Shown here one piece after another: positions 2,813-53,478 of a stretch of DNA of 64,000 nt; position 1 is the stretch's first letter, and each line of letters opens with the position of its first letter. This stretch comes from an uncultured Gammaproteobacteria bacterium (GTDB lineage: Bacteria; Patescibacteriota; Patescibacteriia; Patescibacteriales; UBA12465). The notes beneath the pieces are model-generated. The model searched no databases. It worked only from the letters and a program-made list of their open reading frames with translations, and was not told where the DNA came from. Made by a program: the position numbers and the translations under genes. The DNA is taken from assembly GCA_964540285.1 (NCBI GenBank), contig CAZILW010000001.1, forward strand, positions 63,703 to 127,702, given 5' to 3'.

Positions 2813-4582
2813 TTATTTCCTCTCTTTAATTTCCTTTGAAATCATTTCGAAAAAATCATCAGATGAGAAAATTTCAGTATCATTTCCCCCTCTCTTTCTA
2901 ACTGCAAAAATATTTTCCTCCATTTCTTTATCTCCAATAACCAAAACATAAGGAACTTTTTCAATAGTAGCTTTCCTGATTTTATTTCCCATGGTCTCAT
3001 TGTTAATATCCAGCTCAACTCTAATTCCCCTTTTCATAAATTCTTCTCTTGTTTTTTGACAATGATCTATATGCTTTTCTCCAACCGATAGAATCTTCAC
3101 CTGAACTGGAGATAGCCATACAGGAAAAGCTCCGGCAAAGTGCTCAATAAGCAAAGCTAAAAACCTTTCATAAGAACCAAGTATAGCTCTATGAACCATA
3201 ACTGGTGGTTTATCCTGACCATCTTTATCAGTATAACTTAAATTAAATCTTTTTGGTGTAGCAAAGTCAACCTGAACAGTTGGAATTTGGATTTCTTTAC
3301 CAATAGAATCTCTAAACATAAAGTCTAACTTTGGACCATATAAAGCTGCCTCTCCTTCTTGTCTTTTGGCTTTTAAATCCATCTCATCAGAAACCTCTTG
3401 GAGCATAGCCTCACAAACATCCCAATCTTCACTATCACCAATATATTTATCTGGATTAGCATAATCCCTCACTGACAAAGAAACCCAATGATTATCCCAC
3501 AGACCCAGCGCACAATAAAACTCCTTAATAATACTCACCATTCTTTTTATTTCATCTTTTACCTGGTCAATTGTGCAAAAAGTATGCCCATCTTCAACAG
3601 TAATGGCATAAACACGAGAAAGTCCTCCTACTTCGCCAGTTTTTTCTGCTCTATATTGCTTTTCTGATTCCATATATCTAATTGGCAAATCTCTATAAGA
3701 GCGAGTGCGAGAAGCATAAATTTGTGTTTGATGAGGACATTGAACTGGCTTCATAACCATTTGGTGCCCCTTAGCAGAAGAAACATGAAATAATTCATCG
3801 CTAAATTTTTTGGCATGACCAGAAAGCTCATATAAATCAATTTTAGCTAAATGAGGAGTCATGACCTTTTGAAAGCCATAAGAGCGACAAACAGACTCTA
3901 TATGATGACGAAGTTCATCAATAATAATCATGCCCTTAGGAGTAAACAAAGGAAGTCCTGGACCAACTAAATCAGAAAAGCAAAACAAATCTAATTCTTG
4001 TCCTAGTTTTCTATGGTCTCTCTTCTTGGCTTCTTCTACCATTTTTACATAATTATCTAACTCTTCTTTGGTGGAAAAAGATAGGCCGTAAATTCTAGTT
4101 AACATTTTATTTTTTTCATCACCACGCCAATAAGCACCAGCTAGCTTATCAAGTTTAAAAGATCCTAACTGAATTTTCCCGCTTGATTCAATGTGAGGGC
4201 CACGACATAAATCAATAAAATCTCCTAACTGATAAAAACTAACAATCTCCTCCCCTTCTGATTTTAGCTCTTTTAAAATATCGACCTTATAAACATCATC
4301 ACTTTTTTCAAATTTTGAAATAGCTTCGTCAATGTTCATTTCTGATCTAGTAAATTTCAAATTTTGCTTCACGATATGTTTCATTTTTTTTTCAATTTCA
4401 ACTAAATCACTATCTCCTATTTTTTGATCAAAAAAATCAATATCATAATAAAAGCCATTATCAATATCTGGTCCAATAGCAAATTTAGCCTGAGGATAAA
4501 TTTGCATTACGGCCAATGCCATAATGTGAGCCAAGGAGTGTCTTTGCATTTCTAGCTCACTTTTTTCATTTTTGTTTTCCAT
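2813..4582 (-). CDS. thrS: Threonyl-tRNA synthetase (lacks N-terminal TGS domain)
   Basis: 589 aa. Editing-domain HSLAHIMA..GFYYD motif, class II catalytic core and C-terminal anticodon-binding domain. Confidence 0.9.
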   Translation of the reverse strand: MENKNEKSELEMQRHSLAHIMALAVMQIYPQAKFAIGPDIDNGFYYDIDFFDQKIGDSDLVEIEKKMKHIVKQNLKFTRSEMNIDEAISKFEKSDDVYKVDILKELKSEGEEIVSFYQLGDFIDLCRGPHIESSGKIQLGSFKLDKLAGAYWRGDEKNKMLTRIYGLSFSTKEELDNYVKMVEEAKKRDHRKLGQELDLFCFSDLVGPGLPLFTPKGMIIIDELRHHIESVCRSYGFQKVMTPHLAKIDLYELSGHAKKFSDELFHVSSAKGHQMVMKPVQCPHQTQIYASRTRSYRDLPIRYMESEKQYRAEKTGEVGGLSRVYAITVEDGHTFCTIDQVKDEIKRMVSIIKEFYCALGLWDNHWVSLSVRDYANPDKYIGDSEDWDVCEAMLQEVSDEMDLKAKRQEGEAALYGPKLDFMFRDSIGKEIQIPTVQVDFATPKRFNLSYTDKDGQDKPPVMVHRAILGSYERFLALLIEHFAGAFPVWLSPVQVKILSVGEKHIDHCQKTREEFMKRGIRVELDINNETMGNKIRKATIEKVPYVLVIGDKEMEENIFAVRKRGGNDTEIFSSDDFFEMISKEIKERK

Positions 4583-4603
4583 ATAATTTTAATTAAATTA
4601 ATA

Positions 4604-4795
4604 AATAAAAAAATCTCGCTCTAATAAATACACAAAATGTACGTACTAGAACGAGATTTCTCCCGCGGTTCCATCTAGTTTCCTCAAAAGAGGCCACTTA
4701 ATTTTTATCAAACAAAACTTAGTTTTTACTGGTGTAAAAATTGCCCAAAGACAACTATGGTTGGTAGCCACAGCAATCGTTTTGATTGATAAGTT
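4604..4795 (-). ncRNA. Candidate T-box riboswitch leader of thrS
   Basis: Minus-strand leader contains AACUAGAUGGAACCGCGGG (plus coordinates 4662-4682), matching the T-box core AGGGUGGNACCGCG including the UGGA bulge and ACCGCG. Its 3' half overlaps a terminator hairpin AAAUCUCGUUCUA/UAGAGCGAGAUUU followed by U7, ending about 20 nt before the thrS ATG. ACCA candidate specifier sites (Thr codon ACC) lie upstream. Confidence 0.5.
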
Positions 4796-4858
4796 TATTA
4801 TATAATAATCTTATAAGAAAAGCAAATAAGCCAAATTAAAAAAGTAATTTCAATAAAA

Positions 4859-5635
4859 CTAATTAATTTCAAAAAAATTCAAAGCAATAGTAGTGTTAAT
4901 ATTAATATTGCTAATTAAATAAGACATTAAGTTACCATTGACTTGAGGAACAACCTCTTCGGAGTTAACATACAAAGTTCCCACTACGCCAAAAGGATAA
5001 GTATTATACTGTATTTCAACAATAATATTTGACCCTTCTAAAACCTCAACACCTCCAAATTCATTAACATCAGTTATTGTACCAACCACAAAACCATCAT
5101 CTATAATTCTAATAAAATCAAAAGTGGTATACCCTGCGCCACTATAATTTATACCAAAACTAACAAAAACACTCCCCGCCCCACCAGTGTTTCCACTACT
5201 ACCTATTATTATTCCCCCTGGGGTCATTTGTTTAGCTCCTTGGGGTAAATCTGAGACTTGTTTGCCGGTACAGAAATCTATGGTATAGCTGGCACCATTG
5301 TTTTGAGGAGTGTAGATATAGGTATTAGATGCAGATTGACAGTTTCCATCAGCTGGAGTAGGAGAGGAAGGAATATTGTACATAAATACATTATTGCTAG
5401 ATTCAGACTCTATGATACCACTATTCCATTCTTCTTCTGTAGGATATCTTCCATTTTCATTGAAGAATAGTTCTAGGGCAGTTTGTACTTGTTTCATATC
5501 GGCCATTCTTTTACTATCTCTAGCATTTTGTCTGGCTTGTTGTAGGGCTACTACAGCAAGGGTTGCTAATATACCAATAATAGCTATTACTACTAGGAGT
5601 TCGATGAGGGTAAACCCTCGTTTTTGTTTGAACAT
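4859..5635 (-). CDS. Type IV pilin-like protein (prepilin N-terminal cleavage/methylation domain) with Gly/Ser/Thr-rich C-terminal domain
   Basis: N-terminus [20 protein letters not shown] is the class III signal and N-methylation motif. The first 70 aa are about 80% identical to the N-termini of the two FISUMP-pilin genes. Confidence 0.85.
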
Positions 5636-5650
5636 ATTTTTAATAGTCTA

Positions 5651-5740
5651 ATCGCGTGGATACGGAACCCCGTGCCAGAACCCCGTGTCGCATAGCGACT
5701 ATACGGGGAAGACTATACGGGACGAATGTCTTTACGCGAC
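5651..5740. ncRNA. Candidate structured RNA element (GC-rich cloverleaf-like fold)
   Basis: GC-rich island in an AT-rich spacer. The closing helix tcgcgtg(5652-5658)/tacgcga(5733-5739) encloses three hairpins: acgg-aacc-ccgt (5662-5673); ccccgt[gtcgc-ata-gcgac]tat-acgggg (5681-5708); aagac-14nt-gtctt (5709-5732). Strand undetermined. Confidence 0.4.
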
Positions 5741-5780
5741 ATAATTTTTGGTATTAATTATATTAATATTTTTTTAGGGT

Positions 5781-5868
5781 ATTTAGGATAGTTAGGATAC
5801 TTAAGATAATTAGGATAAAAAAATATCCTAACACTCCTAAATATCCTAATAGTCTTAATAATCCTAAA
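5781..5868. repeat. Palindromic array of TTAGGATA / TATCCTAA octamers
   Basis: Three forward copies (5783, 5793, 5810) and three to four inverted copies (5825, 5843, 5861) symmetric about an A7 centre. It lies just 3' of the SDR gene stop and about 150 bp upstream of the pilin start. Confidence 0.6.
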
Positions 5869-5870
5869 AA

Positions 5871-6899
5871 TTAAAATCCATTCAACCCTATCGTTCTCAT
5901 TTGTTTATTGGCTTGCAAATCAAGAATTGTTTTCTTTAGACCGTTTTCTAAAGTTACAACCGGCATCCAGCCAAAATCATTTCTCATTCTATAGGTATCT
6001 GGAATAAATAATTGAGACATAAAAAGTTTGCTTGGTTCAAAAACTATTTTAGATTTAGAATTAGTAAATTCAACAATCATTTTAGCTACATCGTAAAGCT
6101 TTGTGTCAATTTCACAGCCAACGTTATAGGGACCAGAAAAATCAGAGCGCATAACTTTAATAGCTGCGTCAATCATGTCATCTACATAACACAAAGATGA
6201 TGAAAAATTTTGATCTCCAAAAATAACTATATCATCCCCATTTAAAGCATTATTAACAAAGTCCGGTAGCATTTGATCATCTCGCAAGGCCATTCTCGGA
6301 CCGTAAGTTCTAAAAAGTCTTATAATTTTAGCATCTAGGCCAAAAAGCTCTCTATAAGTACTGACCATAGTTTCAGCAAATCTTTTACCCTCATCATAGC
6401 AAGCCCTAGCGCTTAGAAAGTCAACCATTCCAACATAATCCTCTTTAACTTTATTTTTATCAGAGCTATCTTGTCGCAAACCATAAACAACTGAAGATGA
6501 AAATTGAATAAATTTAGATTTATATTTCAAGGCAATATTTAAAGCATTTTTAACAACCAAAGAATTGGCCAAAACTATTTTTTCTTTGTTTTGATCAAAA
6601 TTTCTAGGAGACATTGGACAGGCTAAATTATAAATTTCTTGAATGCCCTGAAAAGAAATTTTAAATTTATTTAACTCAGGTCGAAGCTCTAAATCTAATT
6701 CTTCAGTCAAATCATGATTTATAAAAACAAAATCGGGATTAGACAAAAGATGTTCAATATTTTTAGCATTACTACTACAAAAATTATCAACACAAATAAC
6801 CTTATTATCCTTAATAAGCTCATCACACAAATTTGATCCAATAAAACCAGCACCACCCAATACTAATATATTTTTTTTATCAAAAATTACTGGAGACAT
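5871..6899 (-). CDS. NAD-dependent epimerase/dehydratase (UDP-glucuronate decarboxylase / UDP-sugar 4-epimerase family SDR)
   Basis: GGAGFIGSNL Rossmann motif near the N-terminus and extended-SDR architecture; 342 aa. Confidence 0.8.
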   Translation of the reverse strand: MSPVIFDKKNILVLGGAGFIGSNLCDELIKDNKVICVDNFCSSNAKNIEHLLSNPDFVFINHDLTEELDLELRPELNKFKISFQGIQEIYNLACPMSPRNFDQNKEKIVLANSLVVKNALNIALKYKSKFIQFSSSVVYGLRQDSSDKNKVKEDYVGMVDFLSARACYDEGKRFAETMVSTYRELFGLDAKIIRLFRTYGPRMALRDDQMLPDFVNNALNGDDIVIFGDQNFSSSLCYVDDMIDAAIKVMRSDFSGPYNVGCEIDTKLYDVAKMIVEFTNSKSKIVFEPSKLFMSQLFIPDTYRMRNDFGWMPVVTLENGLKKTILDLQANKQMRTIGLNGF

Positions 6900-6951: not shown

Positions 6952-9018
6952 TCAATTATACGTTTCAATATAAGCCACCGAAACTCCACCTGAAAAATTA
7001 CTATCCAAAGAGTAAAAAGAAGAAACTAGTTCACCTTTAACATTAAAAGCTCTTACATGAGGAGCTCCGCCCGGTCCAGCACCACAAATTATCTCATCTA
7101 TTCCATCCTTATTTAGATCTCCAATCGATAAATTAACTCCTCCTCTAAAATTCTCCCCGTAAGCCAATATTTTTTTTCTTTCTTTACCAAAATTATCAAA
7201 AATTTTAATTTCTGATAAACGTCCTGGTCCAGGAGAGGTTATTATTTCTTTTTTATTTTTAGTTTTTTGACCGTAAACATTAGCTACGGCTACTTTGACC
7301 CCACCATAAAAATTATTTTCATAAGCAAAAAACTGGCCTTTTAACTTAGCCTGATTATCAAAAATACGAACGTGAGGACCACCACCAACACCAGCTCCGG
7401 TTATAATTTCAGAAACTCCATCTCCATCAATATCACCAACAGCAACATTAACACCACCTCTAAATTTTTCATCATAGGCAAAAAACTGACCTTTTAAATT
7501 GCCACGAACATCAAAAATACGAACGTGAGGACCACCACCAACACCAGCTCCGGTTATAATTTCAGAAACTCCATCTCCATCAATATCACCAACAGCAACA
7601 TTAACACCACCTCTAAATTTTTCATCATAGGCAAAAAACTGACCTTTTAAATTGCCACGAACATCAAAAATACGAACGTGAGGACCACCACCAACACCAG
7701 CTCCGGTTATAATTTCAGAAACTCCATCTCCATCAATATCACCAACAGCAACATTAATTCCCCCACGAAAAGAGTCATCATAAACGTTAAAATTGTTTAA
7801 AAGTTTGCCCTTATTATTACTAAAACTTAAAGAATAAATATTTTTATCCGACTGATAACTTTTAACCTCAGCTTGAGGAGCGAACAAAAACATTCCTGAT
7901 AAATTTTGCCACTTTTCATCAGCCCATCTGGCGGAATTTAAAGCATTAACCCGGCCAATCCCTAATTGATCCTTATAAGAACTATTAAGAATATTAATAT
8001 CATCCGAACTTTTAAGTAAAATATCTAGCAATTCTCTTTGGTTTAATTTAGGGTTTATCTGCTTAATTAATCCTAGAGTTCCACTAACAACAGCGGCCGA
8101 CATAGAAGTTCCCGACCAATAGCCTTGATATTCTGAATATTTATTATTTTCTAAATCATAAAATGAAGTAGAAAAGAAACTAAGACCAGGAGCAGAAATA
8201 TCAACACACCTTGATCCATAGGATGAAAAACTTGCCTTTTGATCCATAGAATCTAAAGCTGAAACACCCAAAACAAAACTAGATGAATCATAAAAATCAA
8301 AACAAGCTGGATAACTCGAATTTTTATTTAAATTAAAATTATTATTTCCAACAGCCGAAACAACTATAACGCCAGCTCTATGAGCCCTCTTGATAGCATC
8401 CTCAAATCCCTGATTATAATCAGGCCCAGAAAAGCTCAAGTTTATAATATCAGCTCCGTTATTTACAGCATAATCAATCGCCCTAATAACATCATTAATC
8501 CTTCCCTCACCTTTTTCATTTAAAGCTCTAAGAGCCATAATCTTTGATTTACTAGCAATACCACTTATTCCCAAATCATTGTCGGTTCTAGCAGCTATTA
8601 TTCCAGAAATCATAGTTCCGTGATTTAAACCATCATCATTAGAGCTAGAAGATAATACGGGTCGAGGATTTGGTGTGTTTTCAACAAAATTCCAACCAAA
8701 AATATCATCTATAAAGCCGTTTCTATCATCATCTAGACCATTTTCAATTTCTAAATTATTAATCCAAATATTTCCATGCAAATCAGGATGATCAATATCA
8801 ACTCCCGAATCAATAACCGCTATAACAGGAGACTCGCCCCTAAGATCATAACCCCAAGTATAAGAAGCTCCTATTTTTTTTAAATACCATTGATTTTTAT
8901 AATACTCATCATTTGGTGATGAAAAAGTTTGAGCCTTAACTAAATTAAAATTAGATAAAAATAAAAAAAACGCTAAGAAAACTGCCGCTACTTTTTGTTT
9001 GGCTTTAAATCTTAGCAT
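6952..9018 (-). CDS. Secreted subtilisin-like serine protease (S8) with C-terminal FG-GAP repeats
   Basis: Signal peptide. Catalytic triad motifs VIDSGVD (Asp), HGTMISG (His), GTSMSAAVVSG (Ser). Five C-terminal repeats FRGGVNVAVGDIDGDGVSEIITGAGVGGGPHVR (FG-GAP with DxDGDG Ca-binding loop). Confidence 0.85.
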   Translation of the reverse strand: MLRFKAKQKVAAVFLAFFLFLSNFNLVKAQTFSSPNDEYYKNQWYLKKIGASYTWGYDLRGESPVIAVIDSGVDIDHPDLHGNIWINNLEIENGLDDDRNGFIDDIFGWNFVENTPNPRPVLSSSSNDDGLNHGTMISGIIAARTDNDLGISGIASKSKIMALRALNEKGEGRINDVIRAIDYAVNNGADIINLSFSGPDYNQGFEDAIKRAHRAGVIVVSAVGNNNFNLNKNSSYPACFDFYDSSSFVLGVSALDSMDQKASFSSYGSRCVDISAPGLSFFSTSFYDLENNKYSEYQGYWSGTSMSAAVVSGTLGLIKQINPKLNQRELLDILLKSSDDINILNSSYKDQLGIGRVNALNSARWADEKWQNLSGMFLFAPQAEVKSYQSDKNIYSLSFSNNKGKLLNNFNVYDDSFRGGINVAVGDIDGDGVSEIITGAGVGGGPHVRIFDVRGNLKGQFFAYDEKFRGGVNVAVGDIDGDGVSEIITGAGVGGGPHVRIFDVRGNLKGQFFAYDEKFRGGVNVAVGDIDGDGVSEIITGAGVGGGPHVRIFDNQAKLKGQFFAYENNFYGGVKVAVANVYGQKTKNKKEIITSPGPGRLSEIKIFDNFGKERKKILAYGENFRGGVNLSIGDLNKDGIDEIICGAGPGGAPHVRAFNVKGELVSSFYSLDSNFSGGVSVAYIETYN
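7290..7760. repeat. Perfect 153-bp tandem repeats (about 3 copies) inside the S8 protease gene
   Basis: Unit starting gaggaccaccaccaacaccagctccggttataatttcag recurs at 7374, 7527 and 7680 with 100% identity over two full units. Encodes identical 51-aa FG-GAP repeats. Confidence 0.85.
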
Positions 9019-16504: not shown

Positions 16505-19015
16505 TTAATTTAATAAAGTAGTAAAAGCAACAACATTACCATAAGAAATTCCCTTCTCGTTCACAGCATAAGCTCTGAAATAATAAGTCGTGTTAGGATG
16601 TAAAATATCAATAGTTTTGCTAAATACTGAATTATGATTGGTTATTCTAATAATATTTACATTGTTGGAGATATATTCAAGATTATTATGATCGGCCCAA
16701 ATAATTCCTCTGGCATAAACCGTACCACCTCCATTGGCCGTCACCTGACCATTTAATGTGGCTACATTAGCGGTCAAATTGGTAGCTGACTCAGTGGACA
16801 CGGTAGGAAGAGATATTGCAGGAAAGTCTTCTCCTTTTATGCACCTAACGGAAATGCCACTATAGTCGTACGCATTGTTATATATTGGATTAACGTCAGT
16901 ATTTGTTAAAATATAGTAACGAGTAGTGCTAAGAGTAGCAATTGATAATGTCCAAAAATTAGCCCGAGTTCCAATATAGGAAAAATTAGTCGTCTTAATT
17001 CCGGATGGTAAAATTGAAAAATTAAAATAATTAGTACCAACAGAAGAAGAATTGTCCCAACGAGGATGATCACTAACATTACAAACACCGCCTAAGGAAG
17101 AATCGACCATTCTACAAGATTTTAAGGTTAGAGAATTGTTTGATCCAATGGAATTATTAAGCTCAACAAAATCAGAGTAAAAAGGAACTCTCCATCCAGG
17201 CGGACAAATTCTTCTAGGGTCAGAAACGGCTAACATTGAATAAAGTTTTCCGTAGGATGCATAACTAGAATTATCCTCATAAAAAGTCCAAACAGGATAA
17301 TTTAAATTAGACCAAGAACCAGCCTGGTTTGTAATAGAATCTCCATTTCTAAATTTGTCCGTTCTTAGGTTTTCGGCGAGCCAACATTTAGTTCCAACAC
17401 CTATTGTTTGATAAATGTATCCGTTGTAATCAACTGCATAACTCCCAACACAAGGATCTAGGGTAGTAAAAGCAACAACATTACCATAAGAAATTCCCTT
17501 CTCGTTCACAGCATAAGCTCTGAAATAATAAGTCGTGTTAGGATGTAAAATATCAATAGTTTTGCTAAATACTGAATTATGATTGGTTATTCTAATAATA
17601 TTTACATTGTTGGAGATATATTCAAGATTATTATGATCGGCCCAAATAATTCCTCTGGCATAAACCGTACCACCTCCATTGGCCGTCACCTGACCATTTA
17701 ATGTGGCTACATTAGCGGTCAAATTGGTAGCTGACTCAGTGGACACGGTAGGAAGAGATATTGCAGGAAAGTCTTCTCCTTTTATGCACCTAACGGAAAT
17801 GCCACTATAGTCGTACGCATTGTTATATATTGGATTAACGTCAGTATTTGTTAAAATATAGTAACGAGTAGTGCTAAGAGTAGCAATTGATAATGTCCAA
17901 AAATTAGCCCGAGTTCCAATATAGGAAAAATTAGTCGTCTTAATTCCGGATGGTAAAATTGAAAAATTAAAATAATTAGTACCAACAGAAGAAGAATTGT
18001 CCCAACGAGGATGATCACTAACATTACAAACACCGCCTAAGGAAGAATCGACCATTCTACAAGATTTTAAGGTTAGAGAATTGTTTGATCCAATGGAATT
18101 ATTAAGCTCAACAAAATCAGAGTAAAAAGGAACTCTCCATCCAGGCGGACAAATTCTTCTAGGGTCAGAAACGGCTAACATTGAATAAAGTTTTCCGTAG
18201 GATGCATAACTAGAATTATCCTCATAAAAAGTCCAAACAGGATAATTTAAATTAGACCAAGAACCAGCCTGGTTTGTAATAGAATCTCCATTTCTAAATT
18301 TGTCCGTTCTTAGGTTTTCGGCGAGCCAACATTGATTACCTATAACAACAGTTTTATAATTATAACCATTATAAACAATACTTTGACCACAATTTAAAGA
18401 GTCAACAACACATTCACCACCCTGACAAACATAACCATTATTACAAGATGGCTCACATAAATACTGGGAATCTATCAAATCAAAACTATTGTTAGTTTCT
18501 TCGCCACTATTGTTCTGATCACCAGGCTCATCACCGCCACCATTATTATCACCACCACTATTATCTCCCAAGCAGTCATAATTCATTATACCTCCAGGAG
18601 TAGCACATTTTAAACCTTCAGATAGGTTAGAGACATCATTTCCTAGACAAAATGATAAAGTGTAGGTAGAATTATCTTCGCTTACTTGATAGTAGAAGTT
18701 ATTTTGACTGGCATCACATACTCCATCAGCTGGATAAGGAGCAGAAGGAATATTATACATAAGTACTTGACCACTGGAAGTAATAAGAGAACCGCTTAAC
18801 CATTCTTCTTCAGTAGGATATCTTCCCTGTTCATTAAAAAATAATTCTAGGGCTGTTTGAGCTTGTTTTATATCAGCTAGTCTTTTACTATCACGAGCTC
18901 TAGAGCGAGCTTGTTGTAGGGCTACCACAGCTAGAGTAGCAAGTATTCCAATAATAGCTATTACTACTAATAACTCGACGAGAGTGAAGGCTTTTTTATA
19001 CTTTATTGGATTCAT
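16505..19015 (-). CDS. Prepilin-N-terminus protein fused to two FISUMP domains and Fn3-like modules
   Basis: N-terminus [20 protein letters not shown] (prepilin motif); Gly/Asp/Asn-rich linker. Two 315-aa repeats each contain CWLAENL...GKLYSMLAV...CPPGWRVP...SVRCIK, which matches the TIGR02145 FISUMP domain pattern. Confidence 0.8.
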   Translation of the reverse strand: MNPIKYKKAFTLVELLVVIAIIGILATLAVVALQQARSRARDSKRLADIKQAQTALELFFNEQGRYPTEEEWLSGSLITSSGQVLMYNIPSAPYPADGVCDASQNNFYYQVSEDNSTYTLSFCLGNDVSNLSEGLKCATPGGIMNYDCLGDNSGGDNNGGGDEPGDQNNSGEETNNSFDLIDSQYLCEPSCNNGYVCQGGECVVDSLNCGQSIVYNGYNYKTVVIGNQCWLAENLRTDKFRNGDSITNQAGSWSNLNYPVWTFYEDNSSYASYGKLYSMLAVSDPRRICPPGWRVPFYSDFVELNNSIGSNNSLTLKSCRMVDSSLGGVCNVSDHPRWDNSSSVGTNYFNFSILPSGIKTTNFSYIGTRANFWTLSIATLSTTRYYILTNTDVNPIYNNAYDYSGISVRCIKGEDFPAISLPTVSTESATNLTANVATLNGQVTANGGGTVYARGIIWADHNNLEYISNNVNIIRITNHNSVFSKTIDILHPNTTYYFRAYAVNEKGISYGNVVAFTTLDPCVGSYAVDYNGYIYQTIGVGTKCWLAENLRTDKFRNGDSITNQAGSWSNLNYPVWTFYEDNSSYASYGKLYSMLAVSDPRRICPPGWRVPFYSDFVELNNSIGSNNSLTLKSCRMVDSSLGGVCNVSDHPRWDNSSSVGTNYFNFSILPSGIKTTNFSYIGTRANFWTLSIATLSTTRYYILTNTDVNPIYNNAYDYSGISVRCIKGEDFPAISLPTVSTESATNLTANVATLNGQVTANGGGTVYARGIIWADHNNLEYISNNVNIIRITNHNSVFSKTIDILHPNTTYYFRAYAVNEKGISYGNVVAFTTLLN
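16518..18333. repeat. Two tandem copies of a 945-bp unit with about 870 bp of 100% nucleotide identity, inside the pilin-FISUMP gene
   Basis: Copy A 16518-17388 is identical to copy B 17463-18333 (offset 945). The identical false ORFs 16906..17088 and 17851..18033 reflect this duplication. Confidence 0.9.
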
Positions 19016-43457: not shown

Positions 43458-44615
43458 TTAATAATTAATATAAATATTTTGATAATCATGATTATATAAT
43501 TGTAAAATTTCATCAGCGCTTAAAACTCGATTATAAATTCTCGTCCTACCAATCTCACCTAAAAAATTCCAAGGATTTCCACCTATAATACCATTGCCCC
43601 AACTACCTGAGCCAAAGGTCAAGTCATTTATATTATCAATTTTTGCATATTCATTTAAAATTTTAGTACTCCAATTTTGTCCATTTAAATAGAAGCTAAA
43701 TACTTGACTTTGCCCAGTTCCACTGTAGGTCATAACCGCCTGATACCAGTCATTCAAATCTATTGAGTATCGATCTGTTATTCTATGAATACCGTCACCC
43801 CTAATAACAGCATAAATATCTATAATATTTGTTGTCAAATTATTATATTGAATATTTATTCCAAAACCAGTTCCACCTTTACCTTTAGAAACAACCCCAG
43901 CATTTCTACTATAAACATCATCCAAACAAATTTCATTCATTTTCATCCAGGTAACTATAGTAAAGTCATCGTATGTGCCAAAATCAAATTCATTTCCCTC
44001 TTGATAATAAGCTCTAGCCAATATATTCCCACTCGGAGAATTTCCGGAATATTTTGGTTTTATAGAATAAGGATTAAAACCCCAAATAGTATTATTTCCA
44101 ACAAAAACATCATTATTTCTAGTATAGTCAAAGGCTGTTTGTCCCTCACCTTCGTCAAACTTCCAAAAGCCAACTAAACCATCTACAATAACTTTTTCAT
44201 GACAATCATCATGCACAACATCATTAGAGTCAAGACATTTTAAGCCAGAACTATAATTATCAATACTTCCCTCCAAAAAAAATTCTAAACTATAATAATC
44301 ATTTTTTAAATCTTTATAATAAATAATGTTACTGGGAATATTATTATAAAAAACACTACCATTAGATCCAATAATCTGACCACCACCCTCAATAACCTCT
44401 GTGTCCGGATACCCTCCCTCTATCATCTTGTAGGCCTCGAGTGCCATTTGAAACTCTTTTATTTCCGATAAAACTTTTTTATCCCTAGCTGACCTTTTAA
44501 TAACATTAACTGAGGCAATAGCTACGGTTGTTACTAAAGAAATAATTAAAATAACAATTATAAGCTCTATAAAAGTGAAGGCTCTTCTTTTGTTGTTTTT
44601 AAAAAGAAAACTCAT
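43458..44615 (-). CDS. Prepilin-N-terminus protein fused to LamG/ConA-like lectin domain
   Basis: N-terminus KRRAFTFIELIIVILIISLV. C-terminal GEIGRTRIYNRVLSADEILQLYN is the Laminin_G_3 (PF13385)-type ending. Confidence 0.8.
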   Translation of the reverse strand: MSFLFKNNKRRAFTFIELIIVILIISLVTTVAIASVNVIKRSARDKKVLSEIKEFQMALEAYKMIEGGYPDTEVIEGGGQIIGSNGSVFYNNIPSNIIYYKDLKNDYYSLEFFLEGSIDNYSSGLKCLDSNDVVHDDCHEKVIVDGLVGFWKFDEGEGQTAFDYTRNNDVFVGNNTIWGFNPYSIKPKYSGNSPSGNILARAYYQEGNEFDFGTYDDFTIVTWMKMNEICLDDVYSRNAGVVSKGKGGTGFGINIQYNNLTTNIIDIYAVIRGDGIHRITDRYSIDLNDWYQAVMTYSGTGQSQVFSFYLNGQNWSTKILNEYAKIDNINDLTFGSGSWGNGIIGGNPWNFLGEIGRTRIYNRVLSADEILQLYNHDYQNIYINY

Positions 44616-44640: not shown

Positions 44641-45840
44641 TTAATTTTGATAGTATTCTTTAATATTGTTATACAAACCAAAAACCTCTTCCGCTGATAA
44701 AGGCTTATTAAAATACATTGCATCGTTTATACGACCTTGAAAATAGGATTCGGTAGTGCTACCACCCTTGCCTAGAAACATAGGCTTGTCAGTTCCTATA
44801 TTCATCACGGTATTTTCGATTTCAGATATCAACTGACCATTCTTGTAAAATCTACGAAAATAACCATCATCAGTTAAAACAATAAAATGCCAACCATCTG
44901 GGTATTTACTTAAAACATAATCTTCTATGGACCACCATTGCCTGTCAACAGAATCAATTGAATTTTGACTAGCAATTTTACCAGAATAAAGGGCTAGTCC
45001 CCAACGACCCAAACTCAAACCAGTACCCCACAACAATCCTCCTGAACCCTGTGGTTTTGTACCATCCAACCAAAGAGCTAAAGAATATTCTGTTTGTTTT
45101 GGCATTGTTGAAATATTAAAAAAATCATCAACTCCATCGAAATAAACAAAGCCGTCAATTAGTTTAGGCTGCAAGTCAATATTAGATTGTTCAGCATTTT
45201 TTCTTTGATAAGAAAGGTCAAAGATTGTTTGAACCATTTCACTGTTATCAGGATTAAGCTTAACCCCACCATCAGAAGACAAAAAGAGAATTAAATTATT
45301 ATAAATGTTGCTATTTTGAAAATAACTAAACAAATTATAAGTCTTACCTCTATTTAAGATGACTCCATTCCCACTACTAACAAAATCTAAATAATCCAAA
45401 CAGGCGCCTCGACAACAAGAAAAGTCAAAAATACCAGCAGAACTAAAACATTTATTTCCAGGACTAAAATTTTCATTAAAATTTTCAACCTCTAAAGCAA
45501 TATCATAACTTAAATCCGAAGAATTAAAAAAATAATCAACACCCTCAGGAATGTTTTCTAAAAAAATTAAACCAGAAGAACTACCAACAAGAGCTTGTCC
45601 CGAAATCAATTGTTCAGGATATCTGCCTTCAACATTTTTATAACTCTCTAAGGCTATTTGAACTTGGCTTATATCGTTAATTTTTTTTAAATCTTTACCT
45701 CTACTTCTAGACCTAGAAATGTTAACCATCACTAAAGTAGAAATTAAAGCAATGATAAAAACGACCACTAAAATTTCAATAAAGGTAAAAGCCTTTTTGT
45801 TTTTAAATAGATAAATATTCATATCGTTAATATAAAACAA
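44641..45840 (-). CDS. Prepilin-N-terminus protein fused to LamG/ConA-like lectin domain (paralogue)
   Basis: N-terminus KKAFTFIEILVVVFIIALIS; C-terminus GRINDAMYFNKPLSAEEVFGLYNN. Confidence 0.8.
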   Translation of the reverse strand: MFYINDMNIYLFKNKKAFTFIEILVVVFIIALISTLVMVNISRSRSRGKDLKKINDISQVQIALESYKNVEGRYPEQLISGQALVGSSSGLIFLENIPEGVDYFFNSSDLSYDIALEVENFNENFSPGNKCFSSAGIFDFSCCRGACLDYLDFVSSGNGVILNRGKTYNLFSYFQNSNIYNNLILFLSSDGGVKLNPDNSEMVQTIFDLSYQRKNAEQSNIDLQPKLIDGFVYFDGVDDFFNISTMPKQTEYSLALWLDGTKPQGSGGLLWGTGLSLGRWGLALYSGKIASQNSIDSVDRQWWSIEDYVLSKYPDGWHFIVLTDDGYFRRFYKNGQLISEIENTVMNIGTDKPMFLGKGGSTTESYFQGRINDAMYFNKPLSAEEVFGLYNNIKEYYQN

Positions 45841-49410: not shown

Positions 49411-51612
49411 TTATTCCTTAATACATCTAATATAACGACCATAAATAGAACTAATAGGCACAGTACTTGTCGTCAAAATTATTGATCCGCCAGTGTTGTA
49501 TATATAATACAAACCTGTCCCAAGATCGTCTATGGTTCTCGTCCAAAGCCAAAAACCACTTCCAAAATAAGGCCACTGTGTTGAATATTTATGACCACCA
49601 GGAAGCAAAGAAAAGCCAAGATCATCGGTGCCATAAACAGTATCAGATGCCCAATATGGATGCTCTGAAGTTACACATTCACCTCCCAAAGGAGAATTAA
49701 CTTGGCGACACGATCTTAAATTGTAAACATTATATGCACCAATACTGTTGACCAAAGAAATAAAATCATCTCTGGTTGGCACTATCCAGCCATCAGGACA
49801 AACCCCCCTAGGATCAATTATGGTATAAGAAGAATAAACATAACCATAAAGATTTCCATAAGTAGAAAGAAAGTCATACAAAGGATAATTCGCTCCACTC
49901 CAACTTCCAGTTACCCGAGGAATACTGTCACCATTTTTAAACTTATCAGTTTTAAGATTTTCTTTAAACCAGCATTGATCGCCGATAGCAACCGTTGGAT
50001 AATTATAACCATTATAAGAAACAGAACTTAAGCCCGAACAAGGATCTGTGGTTGTAAAAGAAAGAACATTGCCATAACCTACTCCAACTTCATTGACAGC
50101 ATAAGCTCTGATATAATAAGTTTTTCCAGCTTGAAGACCATAAAAAACATCAGAAACAAAAGAGGAGGAACTTAAAGTTGAATGTAAAAACTTTGAATTA
50201 CCATCACCGATTAAGGGATTATCATTTTCACTCCAGACAACACCACCAGAATGAACAGGAGATCCGCCATCATTACTTATTGTTCCCCCAGAAAAAGCTC
50301 TATTTGCTGAAACATTATTTACAACACCAGTAATAACGCTAGGGATGGTTTTAGGGCTAGTGTCTGTTTTTTTAATACATCTAATATAGCGACCATAAAT
50401 AGAGTCAATAGGAACAGTACTCGCCGTCGAAATTGTTGGTCCGCTTGTATTATATATATAATACAAGCTAGACCCAGTACTATTAGCAGTTGAAGTCCAA
50501 AGCCAAAAACCACTTCCAAAATAAGGCCACTGTGTTGAATATTTATGACCACCAGGAAGCAAAGAAAAGCCAAGATCATCGGTGCCATAAACAGTATCAG
50601 ATGCCCAATATGGATGCTCTGAAGTTGCACATTCACCTCCCAAAGGAGAATTAACTTGACGACACGATCTTAAATTGTAAACATTATACGTACCAATACT
50701 GTTGACTAAAGAAATAAAATCATCTCTGGTTGGCACTATCCAGCCATCGGGACAAACCCCTCTAGGATCGGTTATAGTATGAGATGAATAAACATAACCG
50801 TAAAGATTTCCATAAGTAGAAAAAAAATCATAAGCTGGATAATAAGAAGAATTACTATGATAAGAAATCCAAGAAGGTATAGTTGATCCCCAGCTTCCAG
50901 TTACCCGAGGAATACTGTCTCCATTTTTAAATTTATCAGTTTTAAGATTTTCTTTAAACCAGCATTGAGCTCCGATGCCTACTGTTTGGTAGGTGTGGCC
51001 GTTATAGGTGATATTTTGACCACATTCAAAAACATCAAGAACACAAGAACTGTTTTGACAAATATAACCAGACTGACAATCAGGATAACAAACATTGAGA
51101 TTTGGATTTTCATTATTATCTCCTCCTCCGGTGTCTCCGCCTCCAGTGTCTCCGCCTAGGCAATCATAATTCATTATTCCTCCAGGAGTAGCACATTTTA
51201 AACCTTCAGATAGGTTAGAAACATCATTGCCTAGACAAAATGATAAAGTGTAAGTAGAGTTATCTTCGCTTACTTGATAGTAGAAGTTATTTTGACTGGC
51301 ATCACATACTCCATCAGCCGGATAAGGAGCAGAAGGAATATTATACATCAGTACTTGACCACTTGAGGTAATAAGAGAACCACTTAACCATTCTTCTTCA
51401 GTAGGATATCTTCCCTGTTCATTAAAGAATAATTCTAGGGCTGTTTGGGCTTGTTTAATATCAGCTAGTCTTTTACTATCACGAGCTCTAGAGCGAGCTT
51501 GTTGTAAAGCTACAACAGCTAGAGTGGCCAGTATTCCAATAATAGCAATTACTACTAGAAGCTCAACGAGGGTAAAAGCTTTTTTGTTTTTTTGAAAATT
51601 GTTTTTAAACAT
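49411..51612 (-). CDS. Prepilin-N-terminus protein fused to two FISUMP domains (paralogue of 16505..19015)
   Basis: The first ~150 aa are nearly identical to 16505..19015. Two FISUMP units (CWFKENL...GNLYGYVYS...CPDGWIVPT...RCIK) are about 90% identical to each other. Confidence 0.8.
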   Translation of the reverse strand: MFKNNFQKNKKAFTLVELLVVIAIIGILATLAVVALQQARSRARDSKRLADIKQAQTALELFFNEQGRYPTEEEWLSGSLITSSGQVLMYNIPSAPYPADGVCDASQNNFYYQVSEDNSTYTLSFCLGNDVSNLSEGLKCATPGGIMNYDCLGGDTGGGDTGGGDNNENPNLNVCYPDCQSGYICQNSSCVLDVFECGQNITYNGHTYQTVGIGAQCWFKENLKTDKFKNGDSIPRVTGSWGSTIPSWISYHSNSSYYPAYDFFSTYGNLYGYVYSSHTITDPRGVCPDGWIVPTRDDFISLVNSIGTYNVYNLRSCRQVNSPLGGECATSEHPYWASDTVYGTDDLGFSLLPGGHKYSTQWPYFGSGFWLWTSTANSTGSSLYYIYNTSGPTISTASTVPIDSIYGRYIRCIKKTDTSPKTIPSVITGVVNNVSANRAFSGGTISNDGGSPVHSGGVVWSENDNPLIGDGNSKFLHSTLSSSSFVSDVFYGLQAGKTYYIRAYAVNEVGVGYGNVLSFTTTDPCSGLSSVSYNGYNYPTVAIGDQCWFKENLKTDKFKNGDSIPRVTGSWSGANYPLYDFLSTYGNLYGYVYSSYTIIDPRGVCPDGWIVPTRDDFISLVNSIGAYNVYNLRSCRQVNSPLGGECVTSEHPYWASDTVYGTDDLGFSLLPGGHKYSTQWPYFGSGFWLWTRTIDDLGTGLYYIYNTGGSIILTTSTVPISSIYGRYIRCIKE

Positions 51613-51621
51613 TGATAAAAA

Positions 51622-53478
51622 TTATTCTAAAACTGCTTTAATTCTTCTAACACCAGAACTAGAACTCTCTTCTTTTTGTATTTTAAATACACCTAAATTC
51701 TCCAGGCTTTCAACATGCGGACCACCACAAATTTCTTTGGAAAAATTACCAACAGAATATACTTTTACCTTCTCTCCATATTTGGACTCAAAAACACCAG
51801 TCGCCCCCATTTGCTTAGCTTCATCTAAAGTCATCTCACTACAATCAACTGCTAGTCCCTTTTGAATATTTTCATTTACTAAATCTTCAACTTGTTTTTT
51901 TTGTTCATCAGTCATTTTTTCTGGATGAGAAAAATCAAAACGAAGTCTTTCAGCAGTAATATTGCTTCCTCTTTGAGCGACATGATCACCCAAAACCCTC
52001 CTAAGAGCTTCTAGTAGTAAATGAGCTGCGGTATGAAGCTTGGTTGTCTCCTCGCTTTGATCAGCCAACCCCCCCTTGAATTTACCAGCGCTAGCCGTTT
52101 TAGATAATTCCTGATGTTTGTTTAAAGCTTGATTATATTCATCCAAAAAATTATCTGATTTAGAAATATTTTTTTCTTCTATAATCTCTAGTGTCATCTC
52201 GAGTGGATAGCCATGACTTTGAAATAAATTAAAAGCAATTTCACCATTAATCTTTTCCCCTTTTTCAACCAAGCTATTTAAAACTCTTTCCCCTTTTTCT
52301 ATGGTTTTGTTAAATTTCTCTTCTTCTTCATTTAATGATTTGAAAATAAATTCTCTATTTTTATCTAATTCACTATAAGAATCTTTATAGAATTCAACTA
52401 TAACTTGGCTAAGCTCAGCAATAAGATTTTTTTGTTCTATTTTTAATTGTTTCAAATAACGCACCGCCCTTCTGATAAGACGTCTAATAATATAACCTTG
52501 GTCGGTATTGGATGGGCTAAGCCCCTTGTCATCTCCCAATAAAAAAGTAGCACCTTTTATATGATCAGCTATAACTTCAAAAGCTTTTTTATTATCCTCA
52601 TATTTAAGTCCAGAAATATTTTCGAGTCTATCTACAATAGAACCAAGAGAGTCAATTTTAAAAATATTGCCTAAATTATTTTTTACCATTACAATTCGCT
52701 CCAGTCCCCCACCAAAATCAACATTTTTGTTTTCTAATTCTTTCCAACCATCGACTGTTTTTTGGTATTGCATAAAAACAGAATTGCCAATTTCAATAAA
52801 TCTTCCACAATCACAATTCAAATGACAATGCTCACCAAATTTTGGATCATGTTCTTTGCCGGTATCATAAAAAGTTTCACTATCTGGACCACCTAATTCT
52901 CCAATGGCATCGCCTCTCTGCCACCAATTTTTGTCTCGATAAGCAAAGATTCTATCTTTGGAAAAATCGAGCTCTATACCAGGCCCTTCATCTCCCTTGG
53001 TAATTGTTTCTGGACCTTCACTGGCTTCAATTCCGTATTTTTTGTAAATATTTTTTAAAATTGCAATAGACTCTTCATCTTTGACTATGCTTTTGCCGTC
53101 ACCAACATAAACAGTCTGATAAATTTTATTAATATCAAAGCCTAGCTCTTCTATTAAAAATTCAAACCACCAATTGAGTTGCTCTTCTTTAAAATAATTA
53201 CCCAAGCTCCAATTACCAAGCATTTCAAAAAAGGTATTATGACGACCATCACCAACGTCGTCAATATCTTCGGAACGGAAACATTTCTGACTATTTACTA
53301 AACGAAGGCCAGCTGGATGTTTTTCACCTAAAAGATATGGCACCAAAGGAAACATACCAGAATTGGTAAATAAAAGACTAGAATCATTTTCAGGAATGAG
53401 CGATGAAGACGATATCAGGGCGTGTTGTTTTTTTTGAAAAAATTCAAAATATTTCTGTCTAATTTCACTGGTTTTCAT
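51622..53478 (-). CDS. alaS: Alanyl-tRNA synthetase, compact form (618 aa, lacks C-Ala domain)
   Basis: Catalytic-core motifs FTNSGM and WGGP-like region; editing-domain HTAAHLLLEALRRVLGDHVAQRGS. Confidence 0.85.
   Translation of the reverse strand: MKTSEIRQKYFEFFQKKQHALISSSSLIPENDSSLLFTNSGMFPLVPYLLGEKHPAGLRLVNSQKCFRSEDIDDVGDGRHNTFFEMLGNWSLGNYFKEEQLNWWFEFLIEELGFDINKIYQTVYVGDGKSIVKDEESIAILKNIYKKYGIEASEGPETITKGDEGPGIELDFSKDRIFAYRDKNWWQRGDAIGELGGPDSETFYDTGKEHDPKFGEHCHLNCDCGRFIEIGNSVFMQYQKTVDGWKELENKNVDFGGGLERIVMVKNNLGNIFKIDSLGSIVDRLENISGLKYEDNKKAFEVIADHIKGATFLLGDDKGLSPSNTDQGYIIRRLIRRAVRYLKQLKIEQKNLIAELSQVIVEFYKDSYSELDKNREFIFKSLNEEEEKFNKTIEKGERVLNSLVEKGEKINGEIAFNLFQSHGYPLEMTLEIIEEKNISKSDNFLDEYNQALNKHQELSKTASAGKFKGGLADQSEETTKLHTAAHLLLEALRRVLGDHVAQRGSNITAERLRFDFSHPEKMTDEQKKQVEDLVNENIQKGLAVDCSEMTLDEAKQMGATGVFESKYGEKVKVYSVGNFSKEICGGPHVESLENLGVFKIQKEESSSSGVRRIKAVLE

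Follow-up and report, generated by a model that had tools for sequence, protein, structure and literature searches.

A small GC-rich island lies at positions 5651-5740 of a 64,000-nucleotide stretch (hereafter the window) of an AT-rich Patescibacteria genome, whose nearest named relatives are Candidatus Falkowbacteria metagenome-assembled genomes. It occupies the spacer between an SDR/epimerase gene and a prepilin-type gene. [quoted passage not shown] The element has relatives at other loci, a layered anatomy and a record of presence and absence at three sites, and it matches no known RNA family or tRNA. A previously undescribed family is the best-supported view as far as the literature was searched, where we found no description of palindromic mobile repeats of this kind in the candidate phyla radiation (CPR).

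The island is strongly structured and non-random. Its GC content is 56.7%, against 19.7% for the rest of the spacer (5636-5870) and 31% for the window as a whole; 3 of the 63,911 90-nt segments across the window reach its GC content, and all three are the element itself. An earlier note on this DNA had described such an island in an AT-rich spacer, together with a closing helix (TCGCGT(G) at 5652-5658 and (T)ACGCGA at 5733-5739, G5658 and T5733 forming a G.U pair on the plus strand) and a nested hairpin, ccccgt[gtcgc-ata-gcgac]tat-acgggg at 5681-5708, and each of these features is present. The plus strand folds at -38.6 kcal/mol (z = -3.6) and the minus strand at -36.8 kcal/mol (z = -3.1); for either strand, 1 of 200 dinucleotide shuffles is as good. 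The same note had likened the fold to a tRNA cloverleaf. Its hairpins do exist, including two further 4-bp hairpins at 5662-5673 and 5710-5731, but with RNA parameters a single nested rod (-38.6 kcal/mol) is about 7 kcal/mol more stable than the cloverleaf (-31.8 kcal/mol). The cloverleaf-like fold is the minimum with DNA parameters only, under which either single strand adopts a branched structure at about -22 kcal/mol. Moreover, its first arm, ACGG/CCGT, reads ACAA/CCGT in a second long copy at locus L032, so that the arm is destroyed and the rod kept; this comparison favours the rod.

A compact and very stable fold could also belong to a stand-alone small RNA (sRNA) or to a degenerate tRNA-like gene, encoded on one strand or the other and terminated by the plus-strand CAUAAUUUUU; a five-T run does begin 5 nt after the closing helix on the plus strand. 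This explanation is close to untenable. ARAGORN finds no tRNA or tmRNA gene in the window or in L019, L025, L028, L032 and L033, while it does report tRNA-Ser and tRNA-Arg in the related contig L044. No Rfam 15 family matches the window or five related loci at the gathering threshold, and at E <= 10 the two matches that touch the element, one a fragment of 13 nt and the other a spurious 170-nt match to an archaeal sRNA, are noise; the riboswitch likeness proposed earlier thus finds no counterpart among known RNAs. For a plus-strand sRNA neither a promoter nor a gene context was found, the sequence upstream being antisense to the pilin coding sequence, and the terminator scan makes no call. Nor does either strand resemble an intrinsic terminator: the sequence after the hairpin is UUAGACUAUUAAAAAU on the sense strand, and on the plus strand the five-U run stands 5 nt off the stem with no plus-strand gene upstream. 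The element is also not conserved at orthologous sites.

Comparison with relatives reveals how the island is built. The basic unit is a 28-nt palindrome, TCGCGT-G-TCGC-ATA-GCGA-CTAT-ACGCGA, in which a 3-nt bulge separates a 6-bp outer helix from a 5-bp inner hairpin. Short forms of this one-layer kind at L028, L029, L031, L034 and L039 correspond base for base to the outer helix plus the central hairpin of the window element, and the whole short element can be rebuilt from the central core CGTGTCGCATAGCGACTATACG together with ATCGCGTG (5651-5658) and TACGCGACA (5733-5741). In every layer of the window's long form, a 6-bp helix leads through a 3-nt bulge into a 3-5-bp helix. Read on the sense strand, its 5' units are TCGCGU-AAA-GACAU, UCCCGU-AUA-GUC and CCCCGU-AUA-GUCGC, its loop is UAU, and its 3' units are GCGAC-ACGGGG, GGC-ACGGGG and GUAUC-C-ACGCGA. 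Because the three layers are nested in one another, each arm holds tandem units (GAACCCCGTG at 5665 and 5678 in one arm, GACTATACGGG at 5697 and 5711 in the other). The layers have diverged yet remain complementary, with two pairs changed on both sides between the outermost helix P1 (TCGCGT/ACGCGA) and the inner helix P4 (CCCCGT/ACGGGG). The long form is thus the short-form architecture repeated three times, its layers being diverged copies of one unit.

Relatives were sought with an exact-pattern scan for the shared core CGTGTCGCNNNGCGACTATACG in metagenome and species-representative genome collections. Three of the seven metagenome stretches returned, and one of the three genome stretches, are real; the remaining matches were rejected as chance occurrences in coding DNA on contigs of 44-72% GC. 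The metagenome scan is incomplete for carrier contigs, since L003, a known carrier, was not returned. The short forms at L034 and L039 were found in this way, as were the copies in L032 and L033, and the short forms at the related-species loci L028, L029 and L031 (AATCGCGTG-TCGCATAGCGACTATACG-CGACA, 28-31 nt) lie about 170 nt upstream of a pilin paralog. Locus L032 (28% GC) carries an 87-nt three-layer long form that has about 80% identity with the window copy and shares its orientation and its distance of 16 nt from the start codon. The gene that follows encodes a 632-aa secreted CARDB-like protein unrelated to pilins, and homology between the window and L032 is limited to the element, the spacer and ATGTT; at least the first ~6 nt of the 16-nt spacer are probably part of the inserted unit, to judge from this alignment and from the empty site in L044/L046. 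Together the variants comprise five distinct sequences in four AT-rich lineages or loci and in one unrelated contig of 39% GC (L033, 1.9 kb), which bears a GAA-loop short form twice, in inverted orientation, and a partial third copy. Viral contigs gave 0 matches to three patterns, and BLAST against phages and plasmids found no similarity to the element.

An indication of mobility comes from filled and empty versions of the same site, which can be compared independently at three places (the window, L032 and L028). A pilin gene at L025, from the same samples, encodes a protein whose N-terminal 60% is 94% identical to that of the window pilin, and its upstream module consists of a TTAGGATA-repeat palindrome followed by AATATTAATATAATTAATAC.AA.AATTATG, that ATG being the pilin start codon. 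The two loci align through this ATG, which is a relic in the window (5742..5740); the window alone then continues with the 88-nt element, the 16-nt spacer and a different ATG (5635). At L032, the ortholog of the downstream gene in L044/L046 (89% amino-acid identity) lacks the element: the empty site reads ...AATTAAT/TATTAAAATTATG and the filled site ...AATTAAT[TGCG...GCGAATAGAA]TATTAAGCTTATG. The third comparison sets L028 against L019, a second pilin locus in L029, and L030, the last three of which are empty, with GTGGC[T/C]CAAAAACTTTC in place of GTGGCAAAA[28 nt]CAAAAACTTTC.

The island had also been considered as a possible riboswitch-like leader that might be conserved in related genomes. 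At orthologous positions it is conserved in none, and homologous islands occur at non-orthologous sites only, which is the signature of a mobile repeat. The element is absent upstream of the two closest pilin paralogs in the window (starts 51591 and 19003) and of pilin homologs in other genomes (L011, L012, L026), and sister lineages have no pilin gene at the site at all. In the two closest sister lineages found (L042 and L043, with 92% and 86% SDR protein identity to the window), the thrS leader comes immediately after the SDR gene (L042 1518-1774; L043 1512-1784). Since the pilin cassette (~4845-5870: AT-rich palindrome, promoter, GC element and pilin gene) is absent between SDR and thrS in these sisters, the whole cassette is an insertion in the window lineage. 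The cassette is a duplicated one, and its absence from the sisters marks it as a recent insertion of ~1 kb into a conserved gene pair. Eight same-strain contigs (from the set L001-L010) are identical across the spacer and thus carry no information on covariation.

Membership of known element classes is partial. In the GTAG and CGTC super-families, a REP has by definition a head of unpaired GTAG or CGTC/TGTC, a stem that begins with AT, and a tail of the CCA type (Di Nocera et al. 2013, PMC3733652). The element has no such head and no CCA tail, its ends being (G)TCGCGT...ACGCGA(C), and so falls outside this definition. Its 28-nt short form lies within the REP size range (a 20-40 bp palindrome), whereas the window copy has 88 nt and three nested units. 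Like REPs and REPINs, these elements are small, GC-rich, imperfect intergenic palindromes of sporadic presence that would be transcribed as RNA hairpins when inside operons; unlike them, they have a low copy number where it can be counted (one in the 64-kb window, two to three in the 1.9 kb of L033), occur without a visible REP-associated tyrosine transposase (RAYT) gene, and lie upstream of a start codon, not downstream of genes, and the three-layer form is not a REP dimer. They do co-occur with CGTC-type REPs in related contigs and nest inside them. In L019 and L028 the GAAA loop of such a REP houses a palindrome whose outer helix is the same (GTCGCGTA...TACGCGAC), so that loops of palindromes evidently receive insertions of this kind in the lineage. 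The host palindromes form a second family, TGTC-ATTCCAGC-GAAA-GCTGGAAT-CCA(GAA), observed at L019 370-520, L028 3495-3640 and L032 ~7165-7215; those of L019 and L028 fit the REP definition (CGTC-1; Neisseria dRS3 / Rickettsia RPE-6 type), and one copy in L032 lies in frame within a 565-aa membrane-protein open reading frame (ORF), like Rickettsia palindromic elements.

The likeness to bacterial MITEs (Correia of Neisseria, RUP/BOX of pneumococcus, Rickettsia palindromic elements) covers length (~90 nt), non-coding sequence, terminal inverted repeats, folding into a long hairpin, and insertion beside or into genes with possible effects on neighbour expression. The window copy, 88 nt between TCGCGT and ACGCGA termini, falls within the 50-500 bp of a MITE, and the family is dispersed in multiple copies that are present or absent at homologous sites. 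However, the terminal inverted repeat is 6-7 bp only, the interior reiterates the terminal unit instead of representing a deleted transposon interior, and neither a clear target-site duplication nor a known parent insertion sequence accompanies it. The element does not qualify as an integron attC site: the ends show no GTTRRRY/RYYYAAC core sites by inspection, and no integrase occurs among the scanned window ORFs. A further parallel is offered by the GC clusters of AT-rich mitochondrial genomes (GC42 of yeast and others), GC-rich palindromes scattered sporadically through a very AT-rich genome with no encoded transposase, although the element here is bacterial and unrelated in sequence. In mitochondria, "merger and shuffling" of GC clusters makes new composite elements (Wu & Hao 2015, PMC4478555), which are an analogue of the nested forms described here. 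Few descriptions exist of small palindromic mobile repeats in CPR bacteria, whose genomes are reduced and AT-rich. The present case shows that CPR bacteria have such elements, some with one layer and some with three; other repeats can harbour them, and they can insert into the handful of nucleotides that separate promoter from start codon in surface-protein genes. They also indicate that a GC-rich "cloverleaf" in an AT-rich spacer is not necessarily an RNA gene.

Several observations weigh against an insertion family. No exact target-site duplication is found: the candidates AAAAAT(T)ATG (window), CAAAA (L028) and AATA(A)TTAA (L032) are imperfect, and all lie in low-complexity AT-rich DNA. REPs typically number hundreds per genome, whereas box patterns, the GTCGCGTA word, an intergenic GC-island scan and blastn-short all failed to find a second copy in the 64-kb window. 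Pfam detects no transposase, recombinase or RAYT-like gene in the window ORFs scanned, which were all but the ribosomal-operon ORFs at ~33-39.5 kb and ORF 51625-53478. Moreover, the two long copies are independent and precede unrelated genes, yet share their orientation and their exact distance of 16 nt from the AUG, and their consensus folds better in sense (-29.75 kcal/mol, 27 pairs) than in antisense (-20.5 kcal/mol, 25 pairs). A purely selfish element predicts neither the shared placement nor the better sense fold.

The last two points suit a genuine or exapted cis-regulatory 5' leader, in which the long form would be a portable sense-strand hairpin that sets how stable mRNAs of surface or secreted proteins are, or how well they are translated; it might protect them from 5'-end-dependent decay as a 5' stabiliser, act as a thermosensor, or bind a regulatory protein through the repeated bulged layers. 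As proposed earlier for the minus strand, the element does lie in the pilin 5' leader and end 16 nt before the start codon. The consensus helices contain six one-sided changes, all of them C-G/U.G exchanges, which are tolerated on the sense strand only, and the L032 copy folds better in sense (-31.4 against -26.4 kcal/mol). The start-codon-proximal arm (CACGGGGTTC twice) carries 1 change in 23 nt and the distal arm 6 in 20 nt. However, the window copy is slightly more stable in antisense (-38.6 against -36.3 kcal/mol), and fold energies were discarded as a guide to strand, since the two long copies disagree. Two window P3 pairs are broken in L032, and the 7 of 9 helix differences that are sense-compatible amount to p of about 0.09. 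With two sequences only, no pair is changed on both sides, so the compensatory changes that the earlier note had suggested looking for are not seen between the long copies. The short form faces the opposite way from the pilin that follows it, whose start codon is 170 nt away; the element has no Rfam relative; and it is lacking in sister species, in all pilin paralogs and at the gene orthologous to that of L032. Selection on the sense-strand RNA of the long form is hence suggestive, not significant, and a leader function as the primary explanation appears rather unlikely. If an exapted leader were nevertheless the case, a mobile element would be supplying 5' untranslated region (UTR) structure to mRNAs that are otherwise almost leaderless. 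The arms compared above span 5665-5687 and 5697-5722 in the window and 6103-6125 and 6135-6160 in L032; their asymmetry could be chance or could reflect a sequence-specific role of the tandem boxes.

The tandem boxes also raise the possibility of a site that acts as DNA: an array of binding sites (four CCCCGT/ACGGGG boxes and the tandem units) for a repressor, recombinase or transposase, or a cruciform that controls the pilin promoter or promotes exchange among the near-identical pilin 5' halves. Each arm does contain direct repeats at 13-14 bp spacing, the adjoining AT-rich palindrome has the same architecture of repeats within arms, and the single strands branch stably with DNA parameters (~-22 kcal/mol). 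The N-terminal halves of the pilins are 94-98% identical and contigs break there, suggesting ongoing recombination. Yet other pilin paralogs vary and function without the element, which also precedes a non-pilin gene and occurs in an unrelated organism; no recombinase or regulator was found encoded nearby; and the inverted boxes are spaced at 16 and 43 bp, which is atypical for operators. We consider a DNA-level site very unlikely.

Under the insertion reading, the element would have entered the pilin gene's gap between -10 box and coding start, which is very short. Among 48 window genes (ORFs of >=150 aa), two have a Shine-Dalgarno-like motif, and TATAAT(TAAT)-like boxes lie 10-15 nt ahead of the start codons of many window genes. 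These features imply that initiation is probably Shine-Dalgarno-independent and that leaders are normally very short or absent, so that any insertion into the gap becomes a 5' leader. Lying between a retained -10 region and the coding start, the element should therefore be transcribed as the 5' leader of the pilin mRNA, and the retained promoter would yield a transcript with a hairpin of about -36 kcal/mol near its 5' end. A -10-like box precedes the L032 insertion by 4 nt, so that the hairpin would there sit at the extreme 5' end of the mRNA. Since it ends 16 nt ahead of the AUG, the hairpin of the pilin mRNA would leave free an AU-rich, Shine-Dalgarno-less landing zone for the ribosome; its position just outside the region the ribosome needs may be why insertions at this distance survive. 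The likeliest effect would be passive or mildly modulatory (that of a 5' stabiliser or a roadblock, for example) and not the sensing of a ligand. The 5'-terminal stabiliser hairpins of the ompA 5' UTR and the Bacillus subtilis aprE leader likewise place a stable stem-loop near the mRNA 5' end, before an unstructured initiation region. These are conserved native leaders, whereas the element here is an insertion absent from orthologs, with a hypothetical stabilising effect.

The three layers may have arisen by self-insertion of the unit into its own hairpin loop, which is plausible because a palindrome of this kind sits in the GAAA loop of a REP in L019 and L028; alternatively, one arm may have been duplicated and the other corrected by template switching. 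A bolder "matryoshka" version of these ideas envisages a self-nesting mobile palindrome that prefers the gap between -10 box and start codon of surface-protein genes and is kept as a mobile cis-regulatory leader, where it would set mRNA stability or translation in Shine-Dalgarno-less Patescibacteria. We regard this version as clearly unlikely.

Table 1. Features of the pilin upstream region in the window and parts of the nested palindrome. Helix positions are plus-strand coordinates.
Feature	Position	Strand	Basis or remark
Prepilin-type gene, N_methyl motif, leader MFKQKRG/FTLIE	4859..5635	-	Downstream gene; its 5' leader carries the element
AU-rich 16-nt spacer UUAGACUAUUAAAAAU, from palindrome to pilin AUG	5636..5651	-	Homologous to L032 spacer AUAGAAUAUUAAGCUU
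Long form, three-layer nested palindrome, 88 nt	5652..5739	- (pilin sense strand)	Sequence, folds, L032 consensus, tandem units, GC rank
Helix P1	5652-5657 x 5734-5739		
Helix P2	5659-5663 x 5726-5730		
Helix P3	5668-5673 x 5717-5722		
Helix P3b	5674-5676 x 5711-5713		
Helix P4	5681-5686 x 5703-5708		
Helix P5	5687-5691 x 5695-5699		Loop 5692-5694
22-nt core CGTGTCGCATAGCGACTATACG	5684..5705	none	Identical to one-layer short form (L028/L029/L031/L034/L039)
Relic start codon ATG (5742..5740) and 9-codon upstream ORF MSRKDIRPV*	5713..5742	-	Alignment with L025; sequence
Promoter-like region common to window and L025 paralog	5743..5770	-	TATAAT 5762..5757; alignment
AT-rich palindrome, 9-nt TTAGGATA tandem units in both arms	5771..5870	none	Part of pilin upstream module

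The genes around the element all lie on the minus strand (SDR/epimerase 6899..5871, the prepilin-type gene 5635..4859 and thrS 4582..2813). The predicted TATAAT box stands 14 nt before the relic ATG, inside a TATAATTAAT motif that recurs just ahead of several other start codons in the lineage; a sigma-70 consensus scan did not list it. A sigma-54 promoter reading of TGGCACGGGGTTCC was rejected, the -12 GC being missing in both copies by inspection. The relic ATG, which in the alignment falls on the start codon that the paralogous L025 pilin uses, opens an upstream ORF (AUG UCG CGU AAA GAC AUU CGU CCC GUA UAG) that runs into the 5' arm of the palindrome and has no counterpart in the L032 copy. 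The adjoining AT-rich palindrome (5771-5870) comprises 100 nt with four to five TTAGGATA units per arm. This unit has 9 matches in the window against 2.1 expected, the top seven within 5771-5870, and the palindrome is unique in the window. It also precedes the L025 pilin paralog, where it is ~22 nt longer, so the number of TTAGGATA units varies. A promoter-upstream element, a binding array and another expandable palindrome are candidate interpretations.

The window otherwise contains core housekeeping genes and four more pilin-like genes. The five prepilin-type genes, all on the minus strand, lie at 4859-5635, 16505-19015, 43458-44615, 44641-45840 and 49411-51612, and two of them are wedged between fusA and tuf. 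Paralogs and related strains share 80-98% identity over the N-terminal ~150 aa of these proteins, while the C-terminal domains differ (FISUMP, LVIVD, InlB B-repeat, Laminin_G_3, or none), and metagenome contigs often break just upstream of them. This pattern suggests a recombining pilin family with swapped tips. Inside an 836-aa pilin-like gene, two GC-rich stretches (16693-16811 and 17638-17756), 945 nt apart, share the same composition profile; Pfam Fib_succ_major matches in both mean that they are probably an internal domain duplication.

Three further observations concern other loci. The spacer 4583-4858 upstream of thrS contains a T-box leader (4644-4798, minus strand), in which a terminator hairpin and its U run accompany the T-box sequence AGAUGGAACCGCGGGAG; the leader is conserved in the sister loci L042 and L043 and, scoring 36 bits (E = 1.3e-6), far under the Rfam gathering score of 93, would be missed by standard annotation. 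In L033, three copies of an 89-nt palindromic repeat and two inverted short GTCGCG elements (400-560 and 1480-1800) bracket a 1.1-kb segment with two small ORFs without a Pfam match, which could be a composite mobile or invertible unit. Finally, the S8 peptidase with FG-GAP repeats at 6952-9018 (minus strand) has 688 aa in the window and 637 aa in L001 (2405-4318), a contig of the same strain that is otherwise identical; the difference is one near-identical 51-aa repeat unit, reflecting either copy-number variation or assembly collapse.

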